Notes: a model not told the origin generated them from the sequence alone. A DNA stretch of 64,000 bases from Candidatus Kaiserbacteria bacterium (GCA_016867375.1 VGJQ01000002.1:368-64367); one strand, 5' to 3'; shown: positions 70-58,984, counted from the stretch's first letter. Made by a program: numbers and translations.

Positions 70-215
70 AAGGGCTCGTCCACACATAACGTACCCGTTA
101 TGTGTGGACTATACTTATGGTCCCGTTCATTTAGTGTTGAACTCATTTATGAACGGGACCAAAATGTCAAAAGTCAGACTTTCTACAAATGTAGAAAGTC
201 TGACTTTTGACATTC
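70..215. repeat. Composite palindromic repeat upstream of the HUH transposase gene: module A (70-160; contains inverted repeat GTCCACACATAACG..CGTTATGTGTGGAC) followed by a 48-bp nested palindrome TGTCAAAAGTCAGACTTTCTACA/TGTAGAAAGTCTGACTTTTGACA (165-212)
   Basis: Inverted repeats read directly in the sequence. Module A recurs at about 10 other sites in the window (13614, 19160 rc, 28999, 32110 rc, 33120 rc, 46944, 50335 rc, 59456, 63154). Confidence 0.8.
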
Positions 216-234
216 TTTCTGGTATACTTTTCGC

Positions 235-936
235 ATGCGGATAGAACCATACGGGATCGACTCATTTGTGCACGTAATGAAGCGTGGCGCGCGCGGACTA
301 CCCATCACGAGTGATATCGCGGATTGTTGGCGTTTTACCCGGCTCCTCTATCATATGAATGATGAATACAAATGTGACCCGTGGGAGAGAGATACTTTTG
401 GTATGGGGATTTTTGACAGGCCGAGCTCTTGGCCTGAACGTAGTCCTTTGGTAAAAGTACTCGCGTGGGTCCTGATGCCCAATCATTTCCATTTGGTATT
501 GAAAGAGATTCGTGAAGGAGGCGTATCAAAGTACATGCAGAAGATAGGTGGCAGTATGACGACTCACCATAATGCAAAACATGAAGAGAAGGGGAGTATA
601 TTTCAGGGTGCATTCAAGTCGCGGACGCTGGATGATGACTTCTACCTGAAACATGTCGCATCATACGTGATGGTGAAAAATGTTTTTGAGCTATATCCAG
701 GTGGATATGATCGTGCTGTTGCTGAGTTTGATAAGGCTTGGAAGTGGGCGGTAGAAGAATATCCGTTTTCGAGCCTTGCGGATTATGCGACCATGCGCAA
801 CTCGCCGATCCTAGAGAAAGACATCTTCGGTGAGTTGTTCCCGTCACCCGCTACGTTTAAAGCGCACTCAAAAGAAATGATAATGAACAGGACGGTGGAG
901 TCTCATACGGGGCTCTACAAAGCTGCGCTTGAGTAA
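235..936 (+). CDS. IS200/IS605-family HUH tyrosine transposase, REP-associated (RAYT/TnpA_REP-like)
   Basis: HUH motif LMPNHFHLVL, a downstream segment typical of Y1 transposases (IFQGAFKSRTLDDDFYLKHVASYVMVKN) and family-typical size of 233 aa. The gene is bracketed on both sides by palindromic repeats, as for REP/RAYT loci. Confidence 0.7.
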   Translation: MRIEPYGIDSFVHVMKRGARGLPITSDIADCWRFTRLLYHMNDEYKCDPWERDTFGMGIFDRPSSWPERSPLVKVLAWVLMPNHFHLVLKEIREGGVSKYMQKIGGSMTTHHNAKHEEKGSIFQGAFKSRTLDDDFYLKHVASYVMVKNVFELYPGGYDRAVAEFDKAWKWAVEEYPFSSLADYATMRNSPILEKDIFGELFPSPATFKAHSKEMIMNRTVESHTGLYKAALE

Positions 937-942
937 TGCAAA

Positions 943-1035
943 ATGTCAAAAGTCTGACTTTCTACATGGGACTCTGTCAAAAGTCAGACTTTTGACATTT
1001 TTCAGTGTCCTAGAGGCGTCGCCTCTAGGATTTTG
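943..1035. repeat. Downstream flank of the RAYT gene: half-palindrome ATGTCAAAAGTCTGACTTTCTACAT (943-967), perfect palindrome TGTCAAAAGTCAGACTTTTGACA (975-997), and hairpin CCTAGAGGCG-TC-GCCTCTAGG + TTTTGG (1009-1035), a likely terminator
   Basis: Palindromes read directly; same GTCAGAC-core hairpin family as 165-212. Confidence 0.75.
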
Positions 1036-2676: not shown

Positions 2677-3759
2677 CTATTTGTGTGCCGAGAGTACCTT
2701 GTGTATGCGCACTGAGAATTGGGTGCCTTTGCCTTCTTCGGATTTGACCATCACCTCGGCGCCGTGTTCGTTGAAGATATTTTTGGCGACGTAGAGTCCG
2801 AGACCCGAGCCATCGGGACGCATCTTCATCGCGACTTTGCCGCGGTGCATCTTGCCAAAGAGATTGGCCAGGTCTTCTTGTGACATGCCGATGCCCGTAT
2901 CCTTGATGGTGATATCGACAAACTCATCGACTTGTGTGATTGAGATAGATACCGTGCCGCCCGAGGGTGTGTATTCGATCGCGTTGGAGAGTACGTTGGA
3001 AAGTGCGATCGAGATGCGATCGGCGTCTGCAAGTACCGGCGGGATATCTGGCGCACTTTCGAATACCAATTTGACTCCGCGGCTGTCAGCGTGGCTTCGC
3101 GTTGATTCGACGAGCTTTTCTACGATGGGCTTCAGATCGGCTTCTGCAAATACGTATCCGAAACGGCCCTCACCGATGCGTGCGGCATTAATGATATCTT
3201 GGACGGTCCCCGATATGCGCGCAACAGCACCAGTCACCTCGGTGGGGACCTGTACAGTCTCAAGCGACCATTTGAGCTGGGTGAGCGCGGTGCGCAGCTG
3301 GTGTTCGATGAGTGTGATGGTGTCGCTTTTGTGTTGGAGTAGCTCGCGTTCGTGTTCGCCTGCTTGCCAGATGGCTGAGATAGCTGCGCTCATTGATTGC
3401 GCCATGTTGCCTATTTCATCGGATGATTGTACCGGCGGGGGAGACACACGTTCGTAATTTACATCACGCGACTGTTTGAACCATGTAAGGAGTGTATGCA
3501 CGGGATGTATAAACAAAAAATGTGTGACTGCGAGGAGATATAAAGACCAGATGGTCAGGAGAATGAGTGCTCGGGAGAGATCTGCGTGCGTCTGAAAGAA
3601 TGGTACAAAAAACAGCAGTGTGCTGAGAATTCCGATGCCAAGGAGCATAAAAAGGAGAAGCTTGACGGAGAGGGGGAAGAGTCTGCGGGGACGCGTCACG
3701 GTTTGCGATGTGGATGGGGGAGTCGAGATACGGACGCCCTGCTCAATCTGGTCTGCCAT
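2677..3759 (-). CDS. Sensor histidine kinase (two N-terminal TM helices, HisKA + HATPase_c); no response regulator adjacent
   Basis: H-box region and C-terminal ATPase motifs (GGTVSISITQVDEFVDITIKDTGIGM, GSGLGLYVAK). Hydrophobic N-terminus. Confidence 0.8.
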   Translation of the reverse strand: MADQIEQGVRISTPPSTSQTVTRPRRLFPLSVKLLLFMLLGIGILSTLLFFVPFFQTHADLSRALILLTIWSLYLLAVTHFLFIHPVHTLLTWFKQSRDVNYERVSPPPVQSSDEIGNMAQSMSAAISAIWQAGEHERELLQHKSDTITLIEHQLRTALTQLKWSLETVQVPTEVTGAVARISGTVQDIINAARIGEGRFGYVFAEADLKPIVEKLVESTRSHADSRGVKLVFESAPDIPPVLADADRISIALSNVLSNAIEYTPSGGTVSISITQVDEFVDITIKDTGIGMSQEDLANLFGKMHRGKVAMKMRPDGSGLGLYVAKNIFNEHGAEVMVKSEEGKGTQFSVRIHKVLSAHK

Positions 3760-5852: not shown

Positions 5853-7211
5853 ATGGATTACAAAAAAGTATATTTTATAGGTATCGGTGGGATCGGCATG
5901 TCTGGACTCGCGCAACTTCTGGTGCAGCAGGGCAAACAGGTGAGCGGCTCCGATAGGGAAGAATCGCCGACGACGGAGATGCTCGCGCGCAAAGGTATCA
6001 GTGTGACGATCGGGCAAACTGCGGACAATGTCGCACTGGATACAGACCTCGTGATCTACAGCGATGCGGTGTATGCCGACAATCCAGAGCGCATGCGCGC
6101 GGCGGACATGGGCATACCGCAATATTCATATTTCGAGGCACTCGGTGAAGTGTCGCGTAGTATGCGCACGATCGCCGTGGCGGGCACGCACGGCAAGACG
6201 ACCACCACTGGCATGCTCGCCAAGATGTTGTCGGATGCGGCGGTCGAGCCGACCGCAATCATCGGATCGATCGTACGCGATTTCGAATCCAACTACCTGC
6301 CCGGCAGACCCGATCTCTTTGTGGTAGAAGCATGCGAGTATAGGGATCACATCCTCAAACTCTCGCCCGAAATACTCGTCATCACCAATGTCGAGCTCGA
6401 TCACACCGACTATTTTCCCGACCTCGCCGCGCTCCAAGAGACGTTTCGCATTGCGGCAGAAAAAGTCCCCTCCTTCGCTCAAGCTTCGGAGGGCGGGCCT
6501 GCACAGGGCGGTGTCATTGTGACGAACCCAAGTGATCCCAATATCGCCCCCATTCTTCAAAATGTTACGGCAAAGGTGATCGATTACACTCAGGTACACA
6601 CACCGACGCTGCAGCTCATCGGCGAGTTTAATCGCGAGAATGCACAGGCGGCCAAGGCTGCGGCCTTGGCCGCATTTCCCGACCTCGACGAGCGCACGAT
6701 CGACGAATCACTCTCGTCATATCGAGGCGCATGGCGCCGATTTGAATACCGCGGCAAGACGCCGTCAGGTGCACTCGTCTACGACGACTACGCACATCAT
6801 CCGACCGCGATCATGAAGACGATCGAAGCAGCGCGCGCACGTTTTCCCGGCAAAAAGATAGTGGTCGCATTTCACCCTCACCTCTACAGCCGCACGAAGT
6901 CACTCATACATGAGTTTGCGGCAGCGCTTGCGACAGCCGATTTCGCTATCGTCGCACCCATCTACGCCGCGCGTGAAGCACTTGATCCGACTGTATCCAA
7001 CCATATTCTCGCAAAGCTCATCAATAGTACGATGCGGCAGGGGTACAAGTCAGACTTGTGCCTTGGCACAAGTCTGACTTGTGCCCCTGCAATCGCGATC
7101 GACTCATTCGACGAGATCCGCGATCGACTCCTGCAGGAAGGCGAAGACGCACTCATTATCACTATGGGCGCAGGGGATATTTATAAAGTAGCGCAGCAAA
7201 TCGCTGATTAG
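5853..7211 (+). CDS. murC: UDP-N-acetylmuramate--L-alanine ligase MurC
   Basis: N-terminus MDYKKVYFIGIGGIGMSGLAQLL and P-loop GTHGKTTTTGM. Carries an in-frame palindromic insert at 7046-7083. The track ORF starts at 5721 and runs through the tRNA-like element; ATG 5853 is preferred. Confidence 0.85.
   Translation: MDYKKVYFIGIGGIGMSGLAQLLVQQGKQVSGSDREESPTTEMLARKGISVTIGQTADNVALDTDLVIYSDAVYADNPERMRAADMGIPQYSYFEALGEVSRSMRTIAVAGTHGKTTTTGMLAKMLSDAAVEPTAIIGSIVRDFESNYLPGRPDLFVVEACEYRDHILKLSPEILVITNVELDHTDYFPDLAALQETFRIAAEKVPSFAQASEGGPAQGGVIVTNPSDPNIAPILQNVTAKVIDYTQVHTPTLQLIGEFNRENAQAAKAAALAAFPDLDERTIDESLSSYRGAWRRFEYRGKTPSGALVYDDYAHHPTAIMKTIEAARARFPGKKIVVAFHPHLYSRTKSLIHEFAAALATADFAIVAPIYAAREALDPTVSNHILAKLINSTMRQGYKSDLCLGTSLTCAPAIAIDSFDEIRDRLLQEGEDALIITMGAGDIYKVAQQIAD
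7046..7083. repeat. Nested perfect palindrome ACAAGTCAGACTTGTGCC-TT-GGCACAAGTCTGACTTGT (18-bp arms) embedded in frame in murC
   Basis: Read directly; same GTCAGAC hairpin family as the RAYT flanks. Encodes KSDLCLGTSLTC near the MurC C-terminus. Confidence 0.8.
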
Positions 7212-8866: not shown

Positions 8867-8976
8867 GGGTTCACCCACACACAACGCACCCGCTGTGCGT
8901 GGCGGCCACCTATAGGCTCGTTCATTTTGTGTTGTGTTGGTGGAAAAAATCTCGCTTTGCGGGGTATACTAGTAGT

Positions 8977-11166
8977 ATGTCGTCCGACCAGAAAAACGAC
9001 GATCGCCGGATCACCTATTTCGCCGCCACGCACACGCGCGGCAAGCGAGAGATGTTTGGTATCCGTGCGATTGATCGCGGCAAGCACATGTACGTGATCG
9101 GCAAGACGGGTATGGGCAAATCGACCATGCTCGAAAACATGGCGATCCAAGACATCCAAAATGGCGAAGGGATTGCCTATATCGACCCACATGGTTCGAC
9201 GGCCGACAAGCTTCTCGATTTCGTCCCATACGATCGCATCAAAGATGTCGTCTACTTCGCGCCGTTTGACGTCGATCATCCGCTCGGATTCAACGTGATG
9301 GAAGACGTCGGCTACGACAAGCGGCATCTCGTGGTTTCCGGCCTCATGGGGGCACTCAAGCGCATCTGGGTCGATGCGTGGAGTGCGCGCATGGAATACA
9401 TCCTGCAGAATACGCTCCTGGCGCTTCTCGAATACCCCGGCTCCAATCTTCTCGACGTCAATCGCATGCTTACCAACAAAACGTTCCGTACCGTAGTGGT
9501 CGAGAAGATCACCGACCCGATCGTGCGTGCATTTTGGACGGAAGAGTTTGCCAACTTCACCGACACCTATACGCGCGAGGCGACGCCAGCTATTCAAAAC
9601 AAAATCGGCCAGTTCACCGCTAATCCGCTCATACGCAACATCGTCGGCCAGTCGCACTCATCGTTTGATCTGCGCAAGATCATGGATGAGAAAAAGATAT
9701 TCATCGTAAATCTCTCAAAAGGCCGCATGGGCGAATCCAATGCATCGCTCTTGGGCTCGATGCTCACAGTCAAGATCTATCTCGCGGCGATGAGCCGCGC
9801 CGACGAGCCGCCCGCGCGCATGGCGCGGCTGCCGCGCTGTTATTTCTACGTGGACGAATTCCAGTCGATGATGAACGAAGCCTTCGCCGACATCCTCTCC
9901 GAATCGCGCAAATACAAGCTCGCGCTCACGCTCGCCAATCAGTACATCGAACAGATGGAAGAAAATGTCCGCGACGCCGTCTTCGGCAACGTCGGCACCT
10001 TGATCACATTTCGCGTGGGGCCGTTTGACGCCGAGACCCTAAAGACGGTATTTGAGCCGACCTTTACCGCCGAAGATTTGGTGGGCCTCGGTATCGGCGA
10101 AATATACCTCACACTCATGATCGACGGTGTGGGATCGGCGCCGTTTTCTGCGCAGACGATCCCGCCGATCGAAGCGCCCAACATCTCGTACCGCGAAGAT
10201 GTGATCACCCATTCACGCGAACACTACGGACGTCCGCGGCCCGAAGTCGAAAAAGCGATCACTGAGCGCCAGCGCGAGTTCATCCCGCCGCCACCCGAGC
10301 CCAAGAAAAAGCGCGAGTACGGCCGGCCAGGCGGTGGAAGCGGCATGATGGGCGGTGGCGGTGGCGGCGGAGGAGGCCCGTTTGGGCAGCCGCGCTCCAA
10401 CAATTTCAACAATACGCATACGCAGCAACAGGGCGGCCATGGTGCACCAGTGCGCGATGGCGGAGGATTTGCACCGCGTCCATCGATTCTCCCGCCACAT
10501 GTCGCGGCACAGGTACAGACACAGACACAGACACAGACGCAAGCCGAACCTTCTGCGCGAGAGAGTGTACAACAAACATCGTCCCCGTCTCCTGCGCGAG
10601 AGCATGTGCCACCGCTGGTACACGCGCGTACGTCGTCGCCTGTCGCTCCTGTGCGCCCGTACGCCGAGCAGTCGCGCGGACACTTCGTCCCTGCTGCGCG
10701 CAAAGACCCGAGCGATCCGCGCGATGCGCTTCGTGCTGCAATCAGTACCGCACGGAAAGCCGAAGAAGAGCATAACCGCCCAAAACCTGCCGAACGTTCT
10801 CCTCTCGACATCTTGCATGAGCGGAAGAAGACGCATGACACTCCCTCAAAGCATGAGGTTCCCCCAAAGCCTGAACGCGACGAGCGCCGATTTTCCCATG
10901 ATGTACGCGATAATCGCCCGTATCAGCATACGAATGATCAGCCGCCACGCGCGCATTATGCGAATGTACCGAAACCTTCGTATGGAGAGAGGGCCGACAG
11001 TGCTGGCATGGCGACGCCTACACACTCACAGGGATCATCTCCCGGCCCACGTCCGCAAGCGCGCCAAGAGACACCTCAAAAAGACTATAGTGATGGCACG
11101 GGTGAGATATCTCATGAGGTGCTCAGGAGTGTACTACGGCAGGATGATCGTGAGGGAGGGATGTGA
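8977..11166 (+). CDS. TraD/TrwB/VirD4-family P-loop ATPase (type IV coupling-protein-like, TrwB_AAD_bind-type) with a ~300-aa low-complexity Gly/Gln/Pro-rich C-terminal tail
   Basis: HMYVIGKTGMGKST Walker A, IAYIDPHGS, FYVDEFQSM Walker-B-like. Paralogous to 50440-53205. Start could be 8899. Confidence 0.75.
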   Translation: MSSDQKNDDRRITYFAATHTRGKREMFGIRAIDRGKHMYVIGKTGMGKSTMLENMAIQDIQNGEGIAYIDPHGSTADKLLDFVPYDRIKDVVYFAPFDVDHPLGFNVMEDVGYDKRHLVVSGLMGALKRIWVDAWSARMEYILQNTLLALLEYPGSNLLDVNRMLTNKTFRTVVVEKITDPIVRAFWTEEFANFTDTYTREATPAIQNKIGQFTANPLIRNIVGQSHSSFDLRKIMDEKKIFIVNLSKGRMGESNASLLGSMLTVKIYLAAMSRADEPPARMARLPRCYFYVDEFQSMMNEAFADILSESRKYKLALTLANQYIEQMEENVRDAVFGNVGTLITFRVGPFDAETLKTVFEPTFTAEDLVGLGIGEIYLTLMIDGVGSAPFSAQTIPPIEAPNISYREDVITHSREHYGRPRPEVEKAITERQREFIPPPPEPKKKREYGRPGGGSGMMGGGGGGGGGPFGQPRSNNFNNTHTQQQGGHGAPVRDGGGFAPRPSILPPHVAAQVQTQTQTQTQAEPSARESVQQTSSPSPAREHVPPLVHARTSSPVAPVRPYAEQSRGHFVPAARKDPSDPRDALRAAISTARKAEEEHNRPKPAERSPLDILHERKKTHDTPSKHEVPPKPERDERRFSHDVRDNRPYQHTNDQPPRAHYANVPKPSYGERADSAGMATPTHSQGSSPGPRPQARQETPQKDYSDGTGEISHEVLRSVLRQDDREGGM
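10516..10539. repeat. (CAGACA)4 hexanucleotide microsatellite inside the TraD-like tail (encodes QTQTQTQT)
   Basis: Read directly; in-frame unit of two codons. Confidence 0.8.
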
Positions 11167-13532: not shown

Positions 13533-13613
13533 CATGCATGGACAGCCTATAACCCCTTGGGTACGAGGGTCTTTCAGATCGTACCTCTCAGACATACTCA
13601 AGTGTCCACAGCT

Positions 13614-13796
13614 AAGGGCTCGTCCACAAATAACGTACCCATTATTTGTGGACTACACTTATGGGCCCGTTCATTTGGTGTTGAACTTATAAGTGCACAC
13701 TTGCATACATGACCAAAAGTCATGTATGCAGAAGTGAGCCTTATGAACGGGACCTAATATGCTATCTCTACGCTATAGCGCAGAGATAGCATACGT
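13614..13796. repeat. Composite repeat: module A (13614-13688), module C inverted (13691-13744; palindrome TGCATACATGAC-CAAAAG-TCATGTATGCA), then module D palindrome ATGCTATCTCTACGC-TATA-GCGCAGAGATAGCAT (13760-13796)
   Basis: Near-identical modules recur elsewhere (19099, 26484, 27385, 32056, 50251, 58234, 58947). Confidence 0.8.
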
Positions 13797-28927: not shown

Positions 28928-29273
28928 CCACCTACACTTATCTGTGCCTATAGGCACGGATAAGTGTAGGTGGTGGATGCATTGTTGTTTGGTCGTGTAA
29001 GGGTTCGTCCACAAATTAACGAATCCGTTATGTGTGGACTACACGTATGGGCCCGCTCATTTTGTGTTGAACTTACTTATGAACGAGCCCTTAGGGCTCG
29101 TCCGTAAATAAATCGACCCTCTCTGAGCTCATTGCATCGCCGACTACAACCACTCCTCAATCGCAAAAAGCTCATCGTACCTCGGGTACGCCTCGCTTTT
29201 TGCTCAATCGTCGCGGCCGTATTCGACGCGCACTGAGTCATATAGGGTCAATTTATTTACGGAAGAGCCCTAA
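28928..29273. mobile_element. MITE-like composite. 48-bp perfect palindrome CCACCTACACTTATCTGTGCCTATAGGCACGGATAAGTGTAGGTGG (28928-28975), module A (28999-29092), then a ~115-bp core bounded by ~26-bp terminal inverted repeats GGGCTCGTCCGTAAATAAATCGACCC / GGGTCAATTTATTTACGGAAGAGCCC (29093-29118, 29245-29270)
   Basis: Inverted repeats read directly; non-coding; left boundary of a repeat-bounded island. Confidence 0.65.
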
Positions 29274-32045: not shown

Positions 32046-32055
32046 AGAAGTTTTT

Positions 32056-32336
32056 AGGTCCCGTTCATAAGGCTCACTTCTGCATACATGACTTTTGGTC
32101 ATGTATGCAAGTGTGCACTTATAATTTCAACACAAAATGAACGGGCCCATAAGTGTAGTCCACAAATAACGAGTACGTTAATTTGTGGACGAGTCCTTAA
32201 AGTACTTGTTTATGATTCGCGGCCGCGAATCATAAACAAGTACTTTTATCCGGACAATATATTTTGGGATGTTCTAAGGCTTAACCTTAGAACAGATATG
32301 CTATCTTTGCGCTATAGCGTGGAGATAGCATACAGA
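32056..32336. repeat. Composite repeat: module C + module B (32056-32200), 46-bp perfect palindrome AAGTACTTGTTTATGATTCGCGG|CCGCGAATCATAAACAAGTACTT (32199-32246), palindrome GTTCTAAGG-CTTAA-CCTTAGAAC (32270-32292), module D (32297-32336)
   Basis: Read directly; right boundary of the two-gene island. Confidence 0.8.
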
Positions 32337-32414: not shown

Positions 32415-33116
32415 ATGTCCTATAGATCTCTTATTCATACGTGGTTTTGCGAACATGCTAAGGACCCGTCCATAAGGGCGGCCTTTTCCTCGATGGTGTT
32501 GCGGGTGCGCGCGGAGTGCAATGGGCACCATTGCACTACCGTGTATGATTGCATCGTTTCGGGGGAATATTACAATGTGCAGACGATGGCCTACTATTAT
32601 TCGCCGTTTCGGAAGGTATATGCAAAACCGTCTGAAGGGTGCCCTTTTTGTACAAGCGCCACGTTTGCAGAGCAGATCATCACTTCAGGGCACGGTATGG
32701 CAGTCGAGAATGAGCATTATCGATGGATCATTAATGCATATCCAAAATTTGAAGGCCATACCATGGTGGTGCCTAAGCGTCATGTGACTACTCTTGGCGA
32801 TGAGAGTGCTGAAGAAATTGTCGCTCGGGAAGAGCTCATTGTGTTGGCGTCAAACACACTTCGGAAGCTGTATCCAGGGTCGGGAATTGAAGTATTTATA
32901 CAAACAGGAGAGGGTTCAGAAAGTAGCGTAGCCCATTTGCACTGGCATGTAGTGCCTTCACTTCCCGAGGATCATCTGCGCGGCTTTGACAAACTCGGTC
33001 ATTTCTTTACGATTGAGCAAGACAAGGAAAAGGTAATCGTCTTTCCGGTGCCGATTCGATTGGCACAAAGCGATCTCCTCAACGCCTTGAGAGATGTTCT
33101 TAGGTCCCGTTCATAA
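32415..33116 (+). CDS. HIT-superfamily (GalT/Ap4A-phosphorylase-like) nucleotidyl hydrolase or transferase
   Basis: Histidine-triad-like HLHWHVVP and a CPFC zinc-knuckle-like motif. The 3' end and stop codon lie inside a module B repeat. Confidence 0.55.
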   Translation: MSYRSLIHTWFCEHAKDPSIRAAFSSMVLRVRAECNGHHCTTVYDCIVSGEYYNVQTMAYYYSPFRKVYAKPSEGCPFCTSATFAEQIITSGHGMAVENEHYRWIINAYPKFEGHTMVVPKRHVTTLGDESAEEIVAREELIVLASNTLRKLYPGSGIEVFIQTGEGSESSVAHLHWHVVPSLPEDHLRGFDKLGHFFTIEQDKEKVIVFPVPIRLAQSDLLNALRDVLRSRS

Positions 33117-33194
33117 ATAATTTCAACACCAAATGAACGGGTCCATAAGTGTAGTCCACAAATAACGAGTACGTTATTTGTGGACGAGCCCTTA
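33099..33194. repeat. Module B copy overlapping the last ~6 codons and stop of the HIT-family gene
   Basis: GGTCCCGTTCAT..GTTATTTGTGGACGAGCCCTTA. Confidence 0.75.
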
Positions 33195-33219
33195 CACAAA
33201 CCACATAAGGAACGTACAG

Positions 33220-33500: not shown

Positions 33501-33794
33501 TTGTGATAGGATAGTAGTGCTTTGTCAATACATCAAGAGCAATGTGTTGTTTTTGATGTGTGAGCACAAACATACAAGTCTGACTTGTTCAAAACAAAGT
33601 TATACACAAGCGTGTATCGATGCGGCTTTTTATGCGATAAAATTGACATGGTTTTTATTTTTTATTAAACGGCAATCGTTTACCTGTCGAGGCGCGAGAC
33701 GTCTCTCGAAGTATGGCCCATATACGGAAAAGCAACCGCTTTTCCCGGCAAAACCATGCTCTCGAGAACAAGTCATGCATAATTACTGAACATC

Positions 33795-46943: not shown

Positions 46944-47035
46944 GCATAAGGGCTCGTCCACACATAATGTACCCATTATTTGTGGACTACACTTATGGGC
47001 CCGTTCATTTGGTGTTGAACTTCGGGACCTAAGGA
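46944..47035. repeat. Module A repeat inserted between the phd-like antitoxin and the truncated relE
   Basis: AAGGGCTCGTCCACACATAATGTACCCATTATTTGTGGACTACACTTATGGGCCCGTTCATTTGGTGTTGAAC. Confidence 0.8.
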
Positions 47036-50250: not shown

Positions 50251-50412
50251 TTAGGTCCCATTCATAAATTAAGGCTCACTTTTGCTATGCAAGTGTGCAC
50301 TTATGGGCCGATGTATATTCTTATACATCGGCCCGAAGTTCAACACAAAATGAACGGGCCCATACGTGTAGTCCACAAATAATGTACCCGTTATGTGTGG
50401 ACGAGCCCTTAA
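50251..50412. repeat. Composite repeat: module C deletion variant (50262-50310), perfect palindrome GGGCCGATGTATA-TTCT-TATACATCGGCCC (50302-50331), module B (50335-50412)
   Basis: Read directly. Confidence 0.8.
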
Positions 50413-50439: not shown

Positions 50440-53205
50440 ATGGAAACGCGCGGGATGGAGCGGACATCTTTTACCTCGTCGGAAAAATTTAAATCTCCCC
50501 AAGAGGAGCTTGCCTATCTGCGCGAGCGTGTGCGCGAAAGAGAGCGAGAGCTTGATATCTCGAGCAATCGCCACGAGAGCGATCGTATCGCGCGTCGCGA
50601 GGTCAAAGCGTATGGCGAAGTCCCGGCATCACGCGTCTTGCATGAGCATTTCGTCATACCCGAACACGAAGCAGTCCGCGAGATGATCAAGCTCGAGCCT
50701 GAGACACACGACAAACAGATCGATGGTCTGCTCGACATGGTCGCGCGCAGCGGCATCCGCAATGCGCTTTCGGTCGCATCGCGCATGAAGAATCCCCACC
50801 TCGAAGATGATCTCCATCGCGCGATCGTGCAGTATGTGGCAGAAGGTTTGCCCGACAAAGGTATGGGCGCTCCCGAAAAGGTCCGCAAAGGCCTCACTAT
50901 GGTGCTTTTCGAAGTGCATCCCCAGGCGCACGGCGAAGGGGATCAGAGCAAACAGCCGCACAAGCTCGAGCAACTGCTCTCGTCATCCGAACAGCTCTAT
51001 GCCGGCATCATCTCGCTCGTCGGTGAGGGAGAATCATTCTCGCTCGAGATTGCCGTAGGGCAGGGTACGGAAGAGGCGTCGCTGTATCTGGCTGTACCGC
51101 GCTCAAAGCGGGACCTCGCGGAGCGTCTGATCGCGTCGGTCTTTCCCAATGCGCGTATCACCGAAAATCGCGGAGATTACAACATCTTCAATTATGACGG
51201 CGAACACGCGGCTGCCTATGGAAAGCTCTCCCAGCACCCGGCACTGCCCTTGAAGACGTATGAATCGTTCGAGCACGATCCCCTCAATGTGCTCCTCGTA
51301 GCCTTTGCCCGGATCAAGAAACATGGCGAAGGGGCGGCGTTGCAGATCGTACTCTCCAGCGAAGGCGATCGCTACAACAAACACTACCGCAAAATGCTCC
51401 GCGAGCTCGAGAAGGGAAAGTCTTTGGGTGAGGCGCTGCGTGTGCCCGAGACTATTTTTGGTGAAGTGGTGCATGATCTGGCGAGCTCGATGTTTACGAA
51501 CGATGCGGACAAGGAGAAGGAGAAAGAGCGCGAAATGCGCCGTGTGACCGATTCGGTATCGGCGGAATCTTTGGGTCGCAAGATCAAGACCCGTATCGTG
51601 CCCGCGACGATCCGTATCGTCACCTCCGCACCGACCGCCGAGCGCGCGCATGAGATGCTTACGAATCTCGAGAGTGCATTCGGACAGTTTGACGATGCCA
51701 AGGGCAATACAATGACCTTCAAAAGCGTATCCTCGTGGTATATGCGCGATTTTCTGCGCGCATTTACCTTCCGCGAATTTGACGACTCTGTCATGATGCC
51801 GCTCTCGCTTTCCGAGATCACCTCTGTCTTTCATTTCACCGCCGAGCAGGTGACGACCTCGCGCGAGCTCAAAAAATCCTATGCCAAACAGACTCCCGCA
51901 CCGGTCGAAATGCCTGAAGACGGTATCGTCATCGGTGTCAATCGCTATGGTGGGCAGGAGACGCCAGTGCGTTTTGGTGTCGCCGACCGCTTGCGCCATG
52001 CGTACGTGATCGGTCAGACAGGTACCGGTAAGACGGGTCTCCTCAAAAATATGATCATTCAGGATATGCGCAATGGTGAAGGTGTGGCCTACATCGATCC
52101 GCATGGCAACGATATCGAAGAGCTCCTCGCTGCCGTGCCGCCCGAACGGTACGACGACGTGATCTACTTTGATCCGGCATACACAGCGCGTCCGATGGGA
52201 CTCAACATGCTCGAATACGATATCAGTCGTCCCGAAATGAAGACGTTTGTCATCGATGAAGTGTACGGCATTTTCCGTAAGCTCTATTCGGATGTGCCCG
52301 AGGCGTTTGGTCCGATGTTTGAGCAGTACTACCGCAATGCTGTACAGCTCGTGCTCGAAGATCCCGATACGGGCAACACCTTCGTCGAAGTCGCGCGTAT
52401 ATTTGCCGACTCATATTTCCGCGACATGAAGCTCGCACACTGCAAGAATCCGATCGTCGTGCAGTTTTGGCGCAAGATCGCCGAGCAGGCACAAGGAGAT
52501 CCGTCGCTTGAAAACATCGCTCCGTACATTGTCGGCAAGTTCGATGTGTTCCTGACCAATGACATCATGCGACCGATTGTTGCGCAGGAGCATTCTGCCT
52601 TCGACTTCCGTGAGATTATGGACGATCGCAAGATCTTCCTCGCCAATCTCTCCAAAGGCCGCTTGGGCGATCGTAACACCAGCCTGCTAGGCCTTGTGCT
52701 TGTGTCCAAGTTCCTCCAAGCGGCGTTTTCACGCGTGGATACGCGCGGGGATTTGCCGCCGTTTTACTTCTATATTGACGAATTCCAAAACTTCGCGACA
52801 CCCTCGATCTCGACGATCCTTTCTGAAGCGCGCAAATACAAGCTCTCACTGACGATCGCTCACCAATTCATCGCACAGCTCGACGAAGGCATCCGCGACG
52901 CCGTGATCGGCAACGTCGGTACGAAGGCAGCTTTTCGTGTCGGTACCACCGATGCCGAATTCCTCGCCAAACAATTCGAGCCGGCCTTTGCTGCCTCAGA
53001 CCTCGAAAATCTTCCCAATCGTAATGCCGTGCTCGCTCTCTTGGTCAATGGCAGACCCGCGCGCCCCTTCACAGTCGAGACGATCGAGCTACCAAAAGTC
53101 GACTTCACCAAGGTCGATGCACTTAAGAAGCTTTCATACGATCGATTTGGTAGTGATAGGGGAGAAGTGGAAGCCGACATCCAGCGCAAATTTGACCAAC
53201 TCTAG
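50440..53205 (+). CDS. TraD/TrwB/VirD4-family P-loop ATPase paralog (921 aa) with a ~500-aa N-terminal domain of unknown function
   Basis: Core HAYVIGQTGTGKTGLLKNMIIQDMRNGEGVAYIDPHGN.., FYFYIDEFQNF and LTIAHQFIAQLDEG are collinear with 8977-11166. The N-terminal half has no recognisable motif. Confidence 0.75.
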   Translation: METRGMERTSFTSSEKFKSPQEELAYLRERVRERERELDISSNRHESDRIARREVKAYGEVPASRVLHEHFVIPEHEAVREMIKLEPETHDKQIDGLLDMVARSGIRNALSVASRMKNPHLEDDLHRAIVQYVAEGLPDKGMGAPEKVRKGLTMVLFEVHPQAHGEGDQSKQPHKLEQLLSSSEQLYAGIISLVGEGESFSLEIAVGQGTEEASLYLAVPRSKRDLAERLIASVFPNARITENRGDYNIFNYDGEHAAAYGKLSQHPALPLKTYESFEHDPLNVLLVAFARIKKHGEGAALQIVLSSEGDRYNKHYRKMLRELEKGKSLGEALRVPETIFGEVVHDLASSMFTNDADKEKEKEREMRRVTDSVSAESLGRKIKTRIVPATIRIVTSAPTAERAHEMLTNLESAFGQFDDAKGNTMTFKSVSSWYMRDFLRAFTFREFDDSVMMPLSLSEITSVFHFTAEQVTTSRELKKSYAKQTPAPVEMPEDGIVIGVNRYGGQETPVRFGVADRLRHAYVIGQTGTGKTGLLKNMIIQDMRNGEGVAYIDPHGNDIEELLAAVPPERYDDVIYFDPAYTARPMGLNMLEYDISRPEMKTFVIDEVYGIFRKLYSDVPEAFGPMFEQYYRNAVQLVLEDPDTGNTFVEVARIFADSYFRDMKLAHCKNPIVVQFWRKIAEQAQGDPSLENIAPYIVGKFDVFLTNDIMRPIVAQEHSAFDFREIMDDRKIFLANLSKGRLGDRNTSLLGLVLVSKFLQAAFSRVDTRGDLPPFYFYIDEFQNFATPSISTILSEARKYKLSLTIAHQFIAQLDEGIRDAVIGNVGTKAAFRVGTTDAEFLAKQFEPAFAASDLENLPNRNAVLALLVNGRPARPFTVETIELPKVDFTKVDALKKLSYDRFGSDRGEVEADIQRKFDQL

Positions 53206-53207
53206 CG

Positions 53208-53231
53208 CGTATACAGGTCTGACCTGTGTAC
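53208..53231. repeat. Palindrome GTATACAGGTC-T-GACCTGTGTAC (GTC-N-GAC hairpin family); a second copy at 53722-53746 brackets the small membrane-protein cassette
   Basis: Read directly. Confidence 0.75.
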
Positions 53232-53271
53232 GTGCGGGAATGGGTGCAAATATGGGGTGCAAATATGGGGA

Positions 53272-53349: not shown

Positions 53350-53670
53350 ATGTTGGCACTGTTTGGGCTTTTTATCATCGTCGGCGCACTCTTTGCTTAT
53401 ATCGCAGGGCGTACGCGCTGTCTGTCTCGCGGCCCGAGTATACTCTGCGAAGCTTTTGCATGGGTTGCGACAGGGACAGGGTCACTTGGCTATACATTAC
53501 GCTTCGGCGTTAAGAATGGGCCAATGCCTAACCCCGGCTCAACCGACTACTTTCTCCATACGGTCCATATAGGACTTATCATCTGGCTTACGATGATAGT
53601 CATTGGCGTAGTGGTCCTCATAAGCAAAGAATGTGGACGGAAGGGAAAGCCGCTTATGTTCAAGTTCTGA
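53350..53670 (+). CDS. Small integral membrane protein (106 aa, 3 TM helices)
   Basis: Strong SD (AAGGAG), own promoter, hydrophobic sequence. Confidence 0.6.
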   Translation: MLALFGLFIIVGALFAYIAGRTRCLSRGPSILCEAFAWVATGTGSLGYTLRFGVKNGPMPNPGSTDYFLHTVHIGLIIWLTMIVIGVVVLISKECGRKGKPLMFKF

Positions 53671-53721: not shown

Positions 53722-53746
53722 ATACACAGGTCTGACCTGTGTACTT
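53722..53746. repeat. Palindrome GATACACAGGTC-T-GACCTGTGTAC (second copy)
   Basis: Read directly. Confidence 0.75.
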
Positions 53747-58946: not shown

Positions 58947-58984
58947 ATATGCTATTGTTGCGCTATAGCATAGAGATAGCATAT
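58947..58984. repeat. Module D palindrome ATATGCTATTGTTGCGC-TATAGC-ATAGAGATAGCATAT
   Basis: Read directly. Confidence 0.7.

Follow-up and report, generated by a model that had tools for sequence, protein, structure and literature searches.

A REPIN-like palindrome inserted in frame within murC of a Candidatus Kaiserbacteria bacterium, in a window that also holds a RAYT-like gene

The stretch of Candidatus Kaiserbacteria DNA analyzed here (64,000 nucleotides, hereafter the window) contains murC, the gene for UDP-N-acetylmuramate--L-alanine ligase, and within murC a long palindrome that adds 48 bp to the reading frame. This segment is an insertion and not native sequence that is palindromic by accident. 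It belongs to a repeat family built on the core AAGTC-N-GACTT, copies of which bracket a transposase-family gene in the same window, are widely distributed among other genomes, and in Patescibacteria are placed mostly inside genes. The palindrome is probably a non-autonomous mobile element of the repetitive extragenic palindromic (REP)/REPIN type, mobilized by an HUH/Y1 enzyme resembling the REP-associated tyrosine transposases (RAYTs). Analogy with Escherichia coli TnpA-REP and with the IS200/IS605 family of insertion sequences (IS) is the ground on which the moving enzyme, a single-strand mechanism, and the time of the insertion are inferred (PMC3479197, PMC6006769).

Results

The murC palindrome is an in-frame insertion

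A reading of the window from its sequence alone had described a perfect 38-bp palindrome with a TT center inside the MurC frame. This palindrome was found at positions 7045-7082 (ACAAGTCAGACTTGTGCC-TT-GGCACAAGTCTGACTTGT), and a repeat finder extended it to longer, imperfect arms of 26 nt (7037-7062 and 7065-7090; 96% complementarity) separated by 2 nt, giving 54 bases in all with one mismatch across the 26 arm positions. The window sequence across it reads ...CGGCAGGGGTACAAGTCAGACTTGTGCCTTGGCACAAGTCTGACTTGTGCCCCTGCAATC..., and its structure is nested, with a palindrome ACAAGTC-N-GACTTGT within each arm. The units are 21 to 23 nt long (for example, GGCACAAGTC-T-GACTTGTGCC), which is the short hairpin expected of a REP, and the two inverted units together form the one long hairpin expected of a REPIN. 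Folded as single-stranded DNA, the region reached -32.4 kcal/mol, against a mean of -9.5 for shuffled sequences (z = -10.6; 0 of 200 shuffles as good), far outside chance expectation. As RNA, the fold reached -54 kcal/mol; with a perfect 26-bp RNA stem of this kind inside an essential mRNA, one may ask how the transcript is translated and how RNase III deals with it. A search of the whole window against Rfam at gathering thresholds returned two tRNAs only and no match at the palindromes.

The MurC protein (residues counted from the Met at 5853) was compared with 18 orthologues of 67 to 86% identity. In the protein alignment, 16 residues at the palindrome, roughly residues 397 to 412, were absent from all 18 orthologues. 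The murC DNA of the closest of these (86%; locus L001) aligned on both sides without 48 nt at the palindrome and without 33 nt at a first insertion site upstream, and the solved MurC 9IR5 likewise showed a 16-residue gap at the palindrome position. Because the orthologues and the solved MurC lack these 16 residues, the 48-bp excess is an in-frame insertion. This is the very comparison by which the sequence-only reading had proposed that its claim could fail, and the claim of an insertion stood; its estimate of about 13 extra residues was too low. The frame is unbroken, as had also been stated, since 48 bp make 16 codons and murC stays open from 5853 to 7211. The MurC sequence downstream of the insert is highly conserved, and the gene therefore looks intact. 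The palindrome GGGG...CCCC at 7040-7087 (23 + 2 + 23) is exactly 48 nt long. No direct target-site duplication was found at either plausible boundary, that is, between ..ATGCGGCA and TGCAATCG.. on the two sides of GGGG...CCCC, or outside 7037 and 7090.

An AlphaFold model of MurC (mean predicted local distance difference test [pLDDT] score, 86.3; template modeling [TM] score, 0.86 to Haemophilus influenzae MurC 1P31) places the insert in a loop, residues 398 to 412, in the C-terminal domain between helix 383-397 and strand 413-415. Residues 401 to 410 have a mean pLDDT of 51, which is low confidence. The sequence-only reading had proposed a structural model to see whether the insert sits in a surface loop, and a loop is where the model puts it. 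The loop peptide added to MurC is GYKSDLCLGTSLTCAP, and the peptide spanning the insert includes ...QGYK / SDLCLGTSLTCAPAIAIDSFDEIR.

A second lineage-specific, in-frame insertion of 11 residues was observed in murC at about 6477-6509, within SFAQASEGGPAQG. It too is absent from all 18 orthologues and forms a low-confidence loop in the AlphaFold model, and it matches no repeat of the window or of any locus that was fetched.

The insertion belongs to a repeat family in the window

The 11-mer AAGTCNGACTT, which represents the AAGTC-N-GACTT core, occurs in the window as 7 exact copies against 0.02 expected (about 350-fold), and with one mismatch allowed as 10 copies against 1.35 expected. Two of the exact cores lie in murC, one is the single unit at 33574, and four lie in the doublets at 163-214 and 937-1004. 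Altogether, the 64 kb hold nine units, arranged as three doublets and three singles (Table 1). In the stem of the variant unit, an A-T pair of the main unit is replaced by G-C, a compensatory change. TGTAG adjoins the stem in both doublets next to the RAYT-like gene. The family label proposed earlier, GTC-N-GAC, was rejected as a signature, being present 25 times in the window against 17.9 expected. Membership of the palindrome in a repeat family was upheld, in that the longer core recurs at other positions of the window and in over 100 further assemblies.

Table 1. Coordinates of murC, the RAYT-like gene, and the repeat units in the window
Feature	Position	Strand	Details
murC (UDP-N-acetylmuramate--L-alanine ligase)	5853-7211	+	Intact; 452 aa from the Met aligned with orthologue starts
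REPIN-like doublet in murC	7037-7090	.	Inverted units 7040-7062 and 7065-7087; center TT (2 nt); encodes about G397-P412 of MurC
Cores of the murC doublet	AAGTCAGACTT 7047-7057; AAGTCTGACTT 7070-7080		11 nt each
RAYT-like HUH/Y1 single-stranded DNA transposase gene (putative)	235-936	+	233 aa; NHFHL (H84, H86), Y144-x-x-V-K-N
Doublet upstream of the RAYT-like gene	163-214	.	25-nt perfect arms; units TGTAG-AAAGTC-N-GACTTT-TGACA
Doublet after the RAYT-like gene	937-1004	.	30-nt arms, 90% complementary, 8 nt between; begins at the first base past the stop codon
Single unit ACAAGTCTGACTTGT	33574-33588	.	15-mer identical to that of murC; intergenic, upstream of a 2318-aa surface-protein open reading frame
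Single variant unit ACAGGTCTGACCTGT (53213-53227)	53205-53236	.	14-pair hairpin right past the stop of open reading frame 50440-53205
Second variant unit ACAGGTCTGACCTGT (53726-53740)	53723-53743	.	Downstream of small membrane-protein open reading frame 53350-53670

Two of the doublets directly bracket a RAYT-like gene

The open reading frame (ORF) at 235-936 is directly bracketed by two of the doublets and lies about 6 kb upstream of the murC palindrome. It is the one RAYT-family gene copy in the window and likely the mobilizing gene, which the sequence-only reading had missed. Its predicted protein matched the Pfam family Y1_Tnp (PF01797, IS200-like transposase) at 28.5 bits against a cutoff of 23, and its sole NCBIfam match was REP_Tyr_transpos (REP-associated tyrosine transposase, NF047646; E value, 7e-10). 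About 670 homologues of roughly 230 aa were found; those whose source is named are all from Patescibacteria, and one was named RayT by the Joint Genome Institute. The HUH motif NHFHL and the Y144xxVKN motif are invariant in an alignment of 20 homologues. A single-sequence search of the protein against the PDB gave no match, and a family-profile search gave marginal matches to ISDra2 TnpA only (E value, about 0.2); the link to 4ER8, described next, came from fold comparison alone. The best Foldseek match in the PDB to a structural model of the protein (pLDDT, 88) was 4ER8_A (E value, 3.7e-6; TM score, 0.62 on the target), the structure of E. coli TnpA-REP, a REP-associated tyrosine transposase, in complex with a REP hairpin; it ranked ahead of ISDra2 and IS608 TnpA. 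Judged by its motifs, profile matches, and modeled fold, the product of ORF 235-936 appears to be a divergent, RAYT-like HUH/Y1 transposase.

A promoter-like site (CTGACT, 17-nt spacer, TG-TATACT; 200-228) overlaps the right arm of the doublet upstream of this gene, an arrangement that would allow the RAYT-like enzyme to regulate its own expression through hairpin binding.

Eleven RAYT-family genes were examined, namely, that of the window and those of loci L006, L014, L048, L122, L123, L125, and L153 to L156. A palindrome was present within about 110 nt upstream of every one (11/11) and directly downstream as well in most, and in 9 of the 11 the AAGTC-N-GACTT core, or a sequence close to it, is part of the flanking palindromes. 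Some of these genes have units of the murC type beside them: CACAAGTC-N-GACTTGTG (L125 and L154) and ACAAGTC-N-GACTTGT (L048 and L014). The exceptions, L122 (whose protein shares 85% identity with that of the window) and L123, have on their flanks other long hairpins, built around GAATCAGA; such a change of hairpin with RAYT divergence is the pattern expected if enzyme and hairpin coevolve. In the MFLL Kaiserbacteria genome, the copy adjacent to the RAYT-family gene (L009) is identical over 38 nt to a dispersed copy (L078). In five loci (L122 to L125 and L156), the RAYT-like gene lies directly beside gap (GAPDH)-rpiB-rpe, and L125 carries two RAYT-family genes within 9 to 20 kb. The synteny fits the housekeeping-like, vertically inherited behavior of RAYTs (PMC5581495).

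The doublets are widespread and their hairpins are conserved

One genome per species was scanned for two cores 8 to 24 nt apart, and at least 120 loci were returned, against about 9 expected by our own rough estimate of chance (596 Gb x 17 spacings / 4^20). Among the matches listed, 67 loci carry Patescibacteria names, 44 come from other phyla, and 9 are named only "bacterium," so that at least 67 are from Patescibacteria; some of the matches outside Patescibacteria are direct or tandem repeats and possibly unrelated. The central two bases are complementary in 75% of the doublets among these matches, as expected of inverted units. Across 318 units, flank positions 1 to 5 are complementary in 79, 65, 60, 50, and 46%, with all four pair types in use, and no common tag (GTAG or other) was found at the hairpin foot. 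Outer arms complementary over at least 4 nt were present in 41 of 128 doublets, compared with 0.55% in controls. Among the loci fetched, an identical 35-nt core-spacer-core sequence occurs at five loci of genome JBBUBU with outer arms that differ between copies, yet are complementary within each. Within one genome, the arms of L005 and L096 differ by paired compensatory substitutions. The hairpin is thus kept by compensatory change. An unusual insertion mechanism, in which the outer arms would be inverted target duplications, was considered and dropped, the homologous arms with compensatory changes in L005 and L096 being ordinary REPIN-like divergence.

A metagenome scan with GCACAAGTCNGACTTGTGC returned 27 loci, and no empty murC allele was found in it. 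In Hainich groundwater contigs, single GCACAAGTC-N-GACTTGTGC units lie about 10 to 20 nt from the DnaA-box-like words TTATCCACA / TGTGGATAA (L128, 2523; L133, 1019; L147, 979; L148, 2146) and may represent a copy at replication origins.

Copies in Patescibacteria lie mostly inside genes

Among the matches listed, 73% of the 70 doublets in Patescibacteria-named loci fall in open frames of at least 150 aa, compared with 82% of random 35-nt windows drawn from these loci; for the other phyla, the corresponding values are 33% and 80%. Contrary to the sequence-only reading, a palindrome inside an essential gene is thus not unusual for this family in Patescibacteria, and intragenic REPs are already known (PMC3733652). 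Ten of the host frames were confirmed by Pfam: TsaD (two doublets in one gene), UvrA (twice; L003 and L100), FtsK, topoisomerase I (TopA), SMC, PNPase, a MurF-type ligase, GatB, and MurC. A second MurC with a doublet has it at a different insertion site from that in the murC of the window. In pairwise alignments, the doublet-encoded peptides correspond to gaps in the homologue, and the in-gene motif arrives as an insertion of 30 to 90 nt and not by point substitutions. The insert lengths obtained by protein alignment are ambiguous as to how much of the element was inserted, since 93 nt in UvrA of L003 fits the insertion of both arms and 48 nt in TsaD of L119 fits that of one arm. The core has an intrinsic stop codon in one frame only, and only if N is T; being almost free of stops, it gives rise to the recurrent peptides KSDF/KSDL, EVGL/EVRL, and SxTS.

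In two Tgt genes (L028, about 251-287; L066, about 3638-3674), a doublet stands where the homologue of L103 has a CxCxxC zinc-binding motif, reflecting either a conserved insertion site or replacement of the motif.

Discussion

Relation to known systems

REP/REPIN sequences and their RAYTs (TnpA-REP), together termed REPtrons, are well described in Enterobacteria and Pseudomonas (PMC2817692, PMC3116915, PMC5581495, PMC3479197). The family described here resembles them in its short palindromic units, often in inverted pairs that form one long hairpin, and in the compensatory upkeep of that hairpin. It also resembles a REPtron in that doublets flank an HUH/Y1 transposase-like gene which, in relatives, is syntenic with gap-rpiB-rpe, as expected of a vertically inherited RAYT. 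It differs in that its 11-nt core is kept across classes, and even across phyla, instead of being species specific, in that the GTAG tag is not general, and in that the protein, at about 230 aa, scores below the NCBIfam RAYT cutoff. In addition, copies in Patescibacteria are mostly intragenic and in frame, and the murC copy does not have the extragenic location by which REPs are defined.

Intragenic copies have precedents. Di Nocera et al. (2013) described single REPs and REP dimers (GTAG/CGTC) that add short peptide segments inside genes, with uvrA repeatedly affected, as a minority within mostly intergenic GTAG/CGTC-tagged families (PMC3733652). Our set also includes uvrA; in contrast, a tag is either lacking or variable, and the frequency of intragenic copies comes close to that under random placement. 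The other precedent is the Rickettsia palindromic elements (RPEs), which the family described here resembles in its in-frame insertion in many unrelated genes. RPEs are palindromic and interrupt, without a frameshift, a large number of unrelated and often essential genes in a bacterium with a small genome, where they are tolerated as extra surface segments; RPE-1 is about 100 to 150 bp and has no known dedicated transposase. RPEs have been cited as "selfish DNA in protein-coding genes" (PMC3733652, PMC1779305). The present element is set apart by its size, 35 to 90 bp (48 to 54 bp in murC), and by its link to a RAYT-like gene. The TnpA proteins of IS200/IS605 elements (IS608 and ISDra2) share the predicted HUH/Y1 fold, as the second-best matches to the structural model, and the recognition of hairpins on single-stranded DNA; insertion without target duplication is a model borrowed from these elements. 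They differ in that TnpA lies inside its own element and is multicopy, whereas here the gene looks single copy and syntenic and the short hairpins are dispersed.

In the literature searched, no paper was found that links RAYT or REP with Patescibacteria, which is not proof of absence, and a literal search for the motif returned unrelated primer sequences only, with no paper quoting it. Compared with the known systems, the distinguishing features are the near-invariant 11-nt core across classes, the lack of a general GTAG tag, the longer and divergent RAYT-like protein, and the mostly intragenic placement in Patescibacteria.

A candidate mechanism and the points against it

In the element, a short hairpin unit around AAGTC-N-GACTT is present twice in inverted orientation, and the two copies would pair into one long hairpin. 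A RAYT-like enzyme would bind this hairpin on single-stranded DNA and would nick and join strands through its catalytic tyrosine, most likely at the replication fork, as in IS200/IS605 and E. coli TnpA-REP. Copies would spread in this way without target-site duplication, and those landing inside genes would survive only where the length is a multiple of three, the frame is free of stops, and the site is a surface loop. In murC, the element would have landed in a permissive loop, leaving a MurC that stays functional. By analogy, mobilization by the RAYT-like enzyme is plausible, and recent activity of the murC copy is plausible as well, given the single mismatch between its arms.

Several observations weigh against this account. 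No transposition event or empty/filled polymorphism was seen, and the window's own genome was returned by neither collection scan, of species genomes or of metagenomes. With the nearest insert-free MurC just 86% identical, the limits of the insert are fixed only to within a few bases. Only the 11-nt core is common to the murC copy (GGCAC-AAGTC..GACTT-GTGCC) and the doublets flanking the RAYT-like gene (TGTAG-AAAGTC..GACTTT-TGACA); the murC copy has GTAC/GCAC in place of the RAYT-linked GTAG tag, and the 64 kb yielded no other doublet of the murC sequence type. Finally, the 235-936 protein falls below the NCBIfam RAYT equivalog cutoff (38.9 versus 80 bits) and exceeds E. coli TnpA-REP in length by about 70 residues.

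Alternative explanations

It is extremely improbable that the segment is native MurC sequence, palindromic by accident, in a lineage-specific loop that arose from ordinary indels. Such an origin would suit the variation of the loop region by one residue among MurC orthologues and the existence of another unique MurC insertion, of 11 aa, that matches no repeat. It is opposed by the absence of the segment from all 18 orthologues and the solved MurC, by the 26-nt-arm palindrome with its z of -10.6, and by its two copies of the 11-mer, whose enrichment in the window is 350-fold and which recurs as a doublet of this form in over 100 further assemblies. We also consider it very unlikely that the palindrome is an assembly or amplification artefact, for example, a false palindrome from a fold-back chimera. 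The exact MurC is carried by one contig only, as an artefact would be; yet the insert is exactly 16 codons long with the frame open, it carries the family core without duplicating neighboring murC DNA, and equivalent in-frame doublets occur in many independent assemblies from different groups and assemblers.

If the palindrome is mobile, it might still have been moved by other means, either as a MITE (miniature inverted-repeat transposable element) mobilized by a DDE transposase elsewhere or by recombination or template switching, the RAYT-like gene being a mere frequent neighbor or target. That murC and RAYT-flanking copies in the window share just 11 nt speaks for this, and some IS elements are known to target REP hairpins. 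We nevertheless think it unlikely: a MITE would be expected to show a target-site duplication, and none was found at either plausible boundary; palindromes flank all 11 RAYT-family genes, and the hairpin changes with the RAYT (L122 and L123), as for cognate pairs; and a RAYT in complex with a REP hairpin is the top structural match. A further explanation is that AAGTC-N-GACTT is a word selected by the host for binding, such as a DNA uptake sequence, a site for a nucleoid or replication protein, or an operator, and is functional, not mobile. The core is conserved across phyla while its flanks vary, several units stand beside DnaA boxes in the groundwater contigs, and the promoter-like site of the RAYT-like gene is overlapped by a doublet, all of which speak for such a word. 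Inverted pairs, and a location within genes for genome maintenance, are also features of the uptake sequences of Neisseria and Haemophilus. Against this, the in-gene motif comes as a 30- to 90-nt insertion, its density is low (7 cores in 64 kb), and systematic bracketing of a transposase-family gene would be unexpected, making a binding word decidedly unlikely.

Wider significance

Streamlined genomes are held to contain few repeats, and REP elements bear "extragenic" in their very name. The present REPIN-like family, together with a RAYT-like gene, was found in Candidate Phyla Radiation bacteria, mainly inside essential genes and without breaking them. Should the pattern prove genome-wide, it would explain part of the unexplained insertions in Patescibacteria proteins, provide natural presence/absence markers for strain tracking, and warn annotators and structure predictors about repeat-encoded loops. 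To our knowledge, how RAYTs move REPINs has not been settled experimentally; a genome-wide pattern would also offer a pair defined in silico, the AAGTC-N-GACTT hairpin as substrate and the RAYT-like protein as enzyme, with which such movement could be examined. A single murC insert thereby leads to a family-wide pattern that is directly testable in public genomes and in vitro.

More tentatively, a domesticated RAYT-like enzyme and near-universal 11-nt-core hairpins adapted to genes may be partners of long standing, and still active, in Patescibacteria and some other phyla, with the hairpins acting as a general source of lineage-specific loop insertions in essential proteins; this we regard as possible and not as probable. 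With its almost stop-free core and copies placed near-randomly relative to coding sequence, such a family could be called "repetitive intragenic palindromes."

Other repeats and ORFs in the window

An unrelated dispersed repeat of about 95 nt is present in the window in eight copies of 85 to 97% identity (59-163, 13603-13757, 19095-19238, 28995-29094, 32054-32201, 33099-33197, 46947-47026, and 50332-50412), with no Rfam match. Two hairpins are conserved in it (GTCCACAAATAACG..CGTTATTTGTGGAC and GGGCCCGTTCAT..ATGAACGGGACC). A palindromic insert of about 50 nt is nested in three of the copies, and one copy adjoins the doublet upstream of the RAYT-like gene. A third repeat, the 36-nt palindrome made of the halves TATGCTATCTCTACGCTA and TAGCGCAGAGATAGCATA, occurs in four copies (13758-13793, 26485-26520, 32297-32332, and 58948-58983), two of which adjoin copies of the 95-nt repeat. 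Two large paralogous ORFs, 8899-11166 and 50440-53205, resemble TraD/VirD4-like ATPases by eye only, and their DNA is 70 to 79% similar (at 9888-9998 and 52811-52922).

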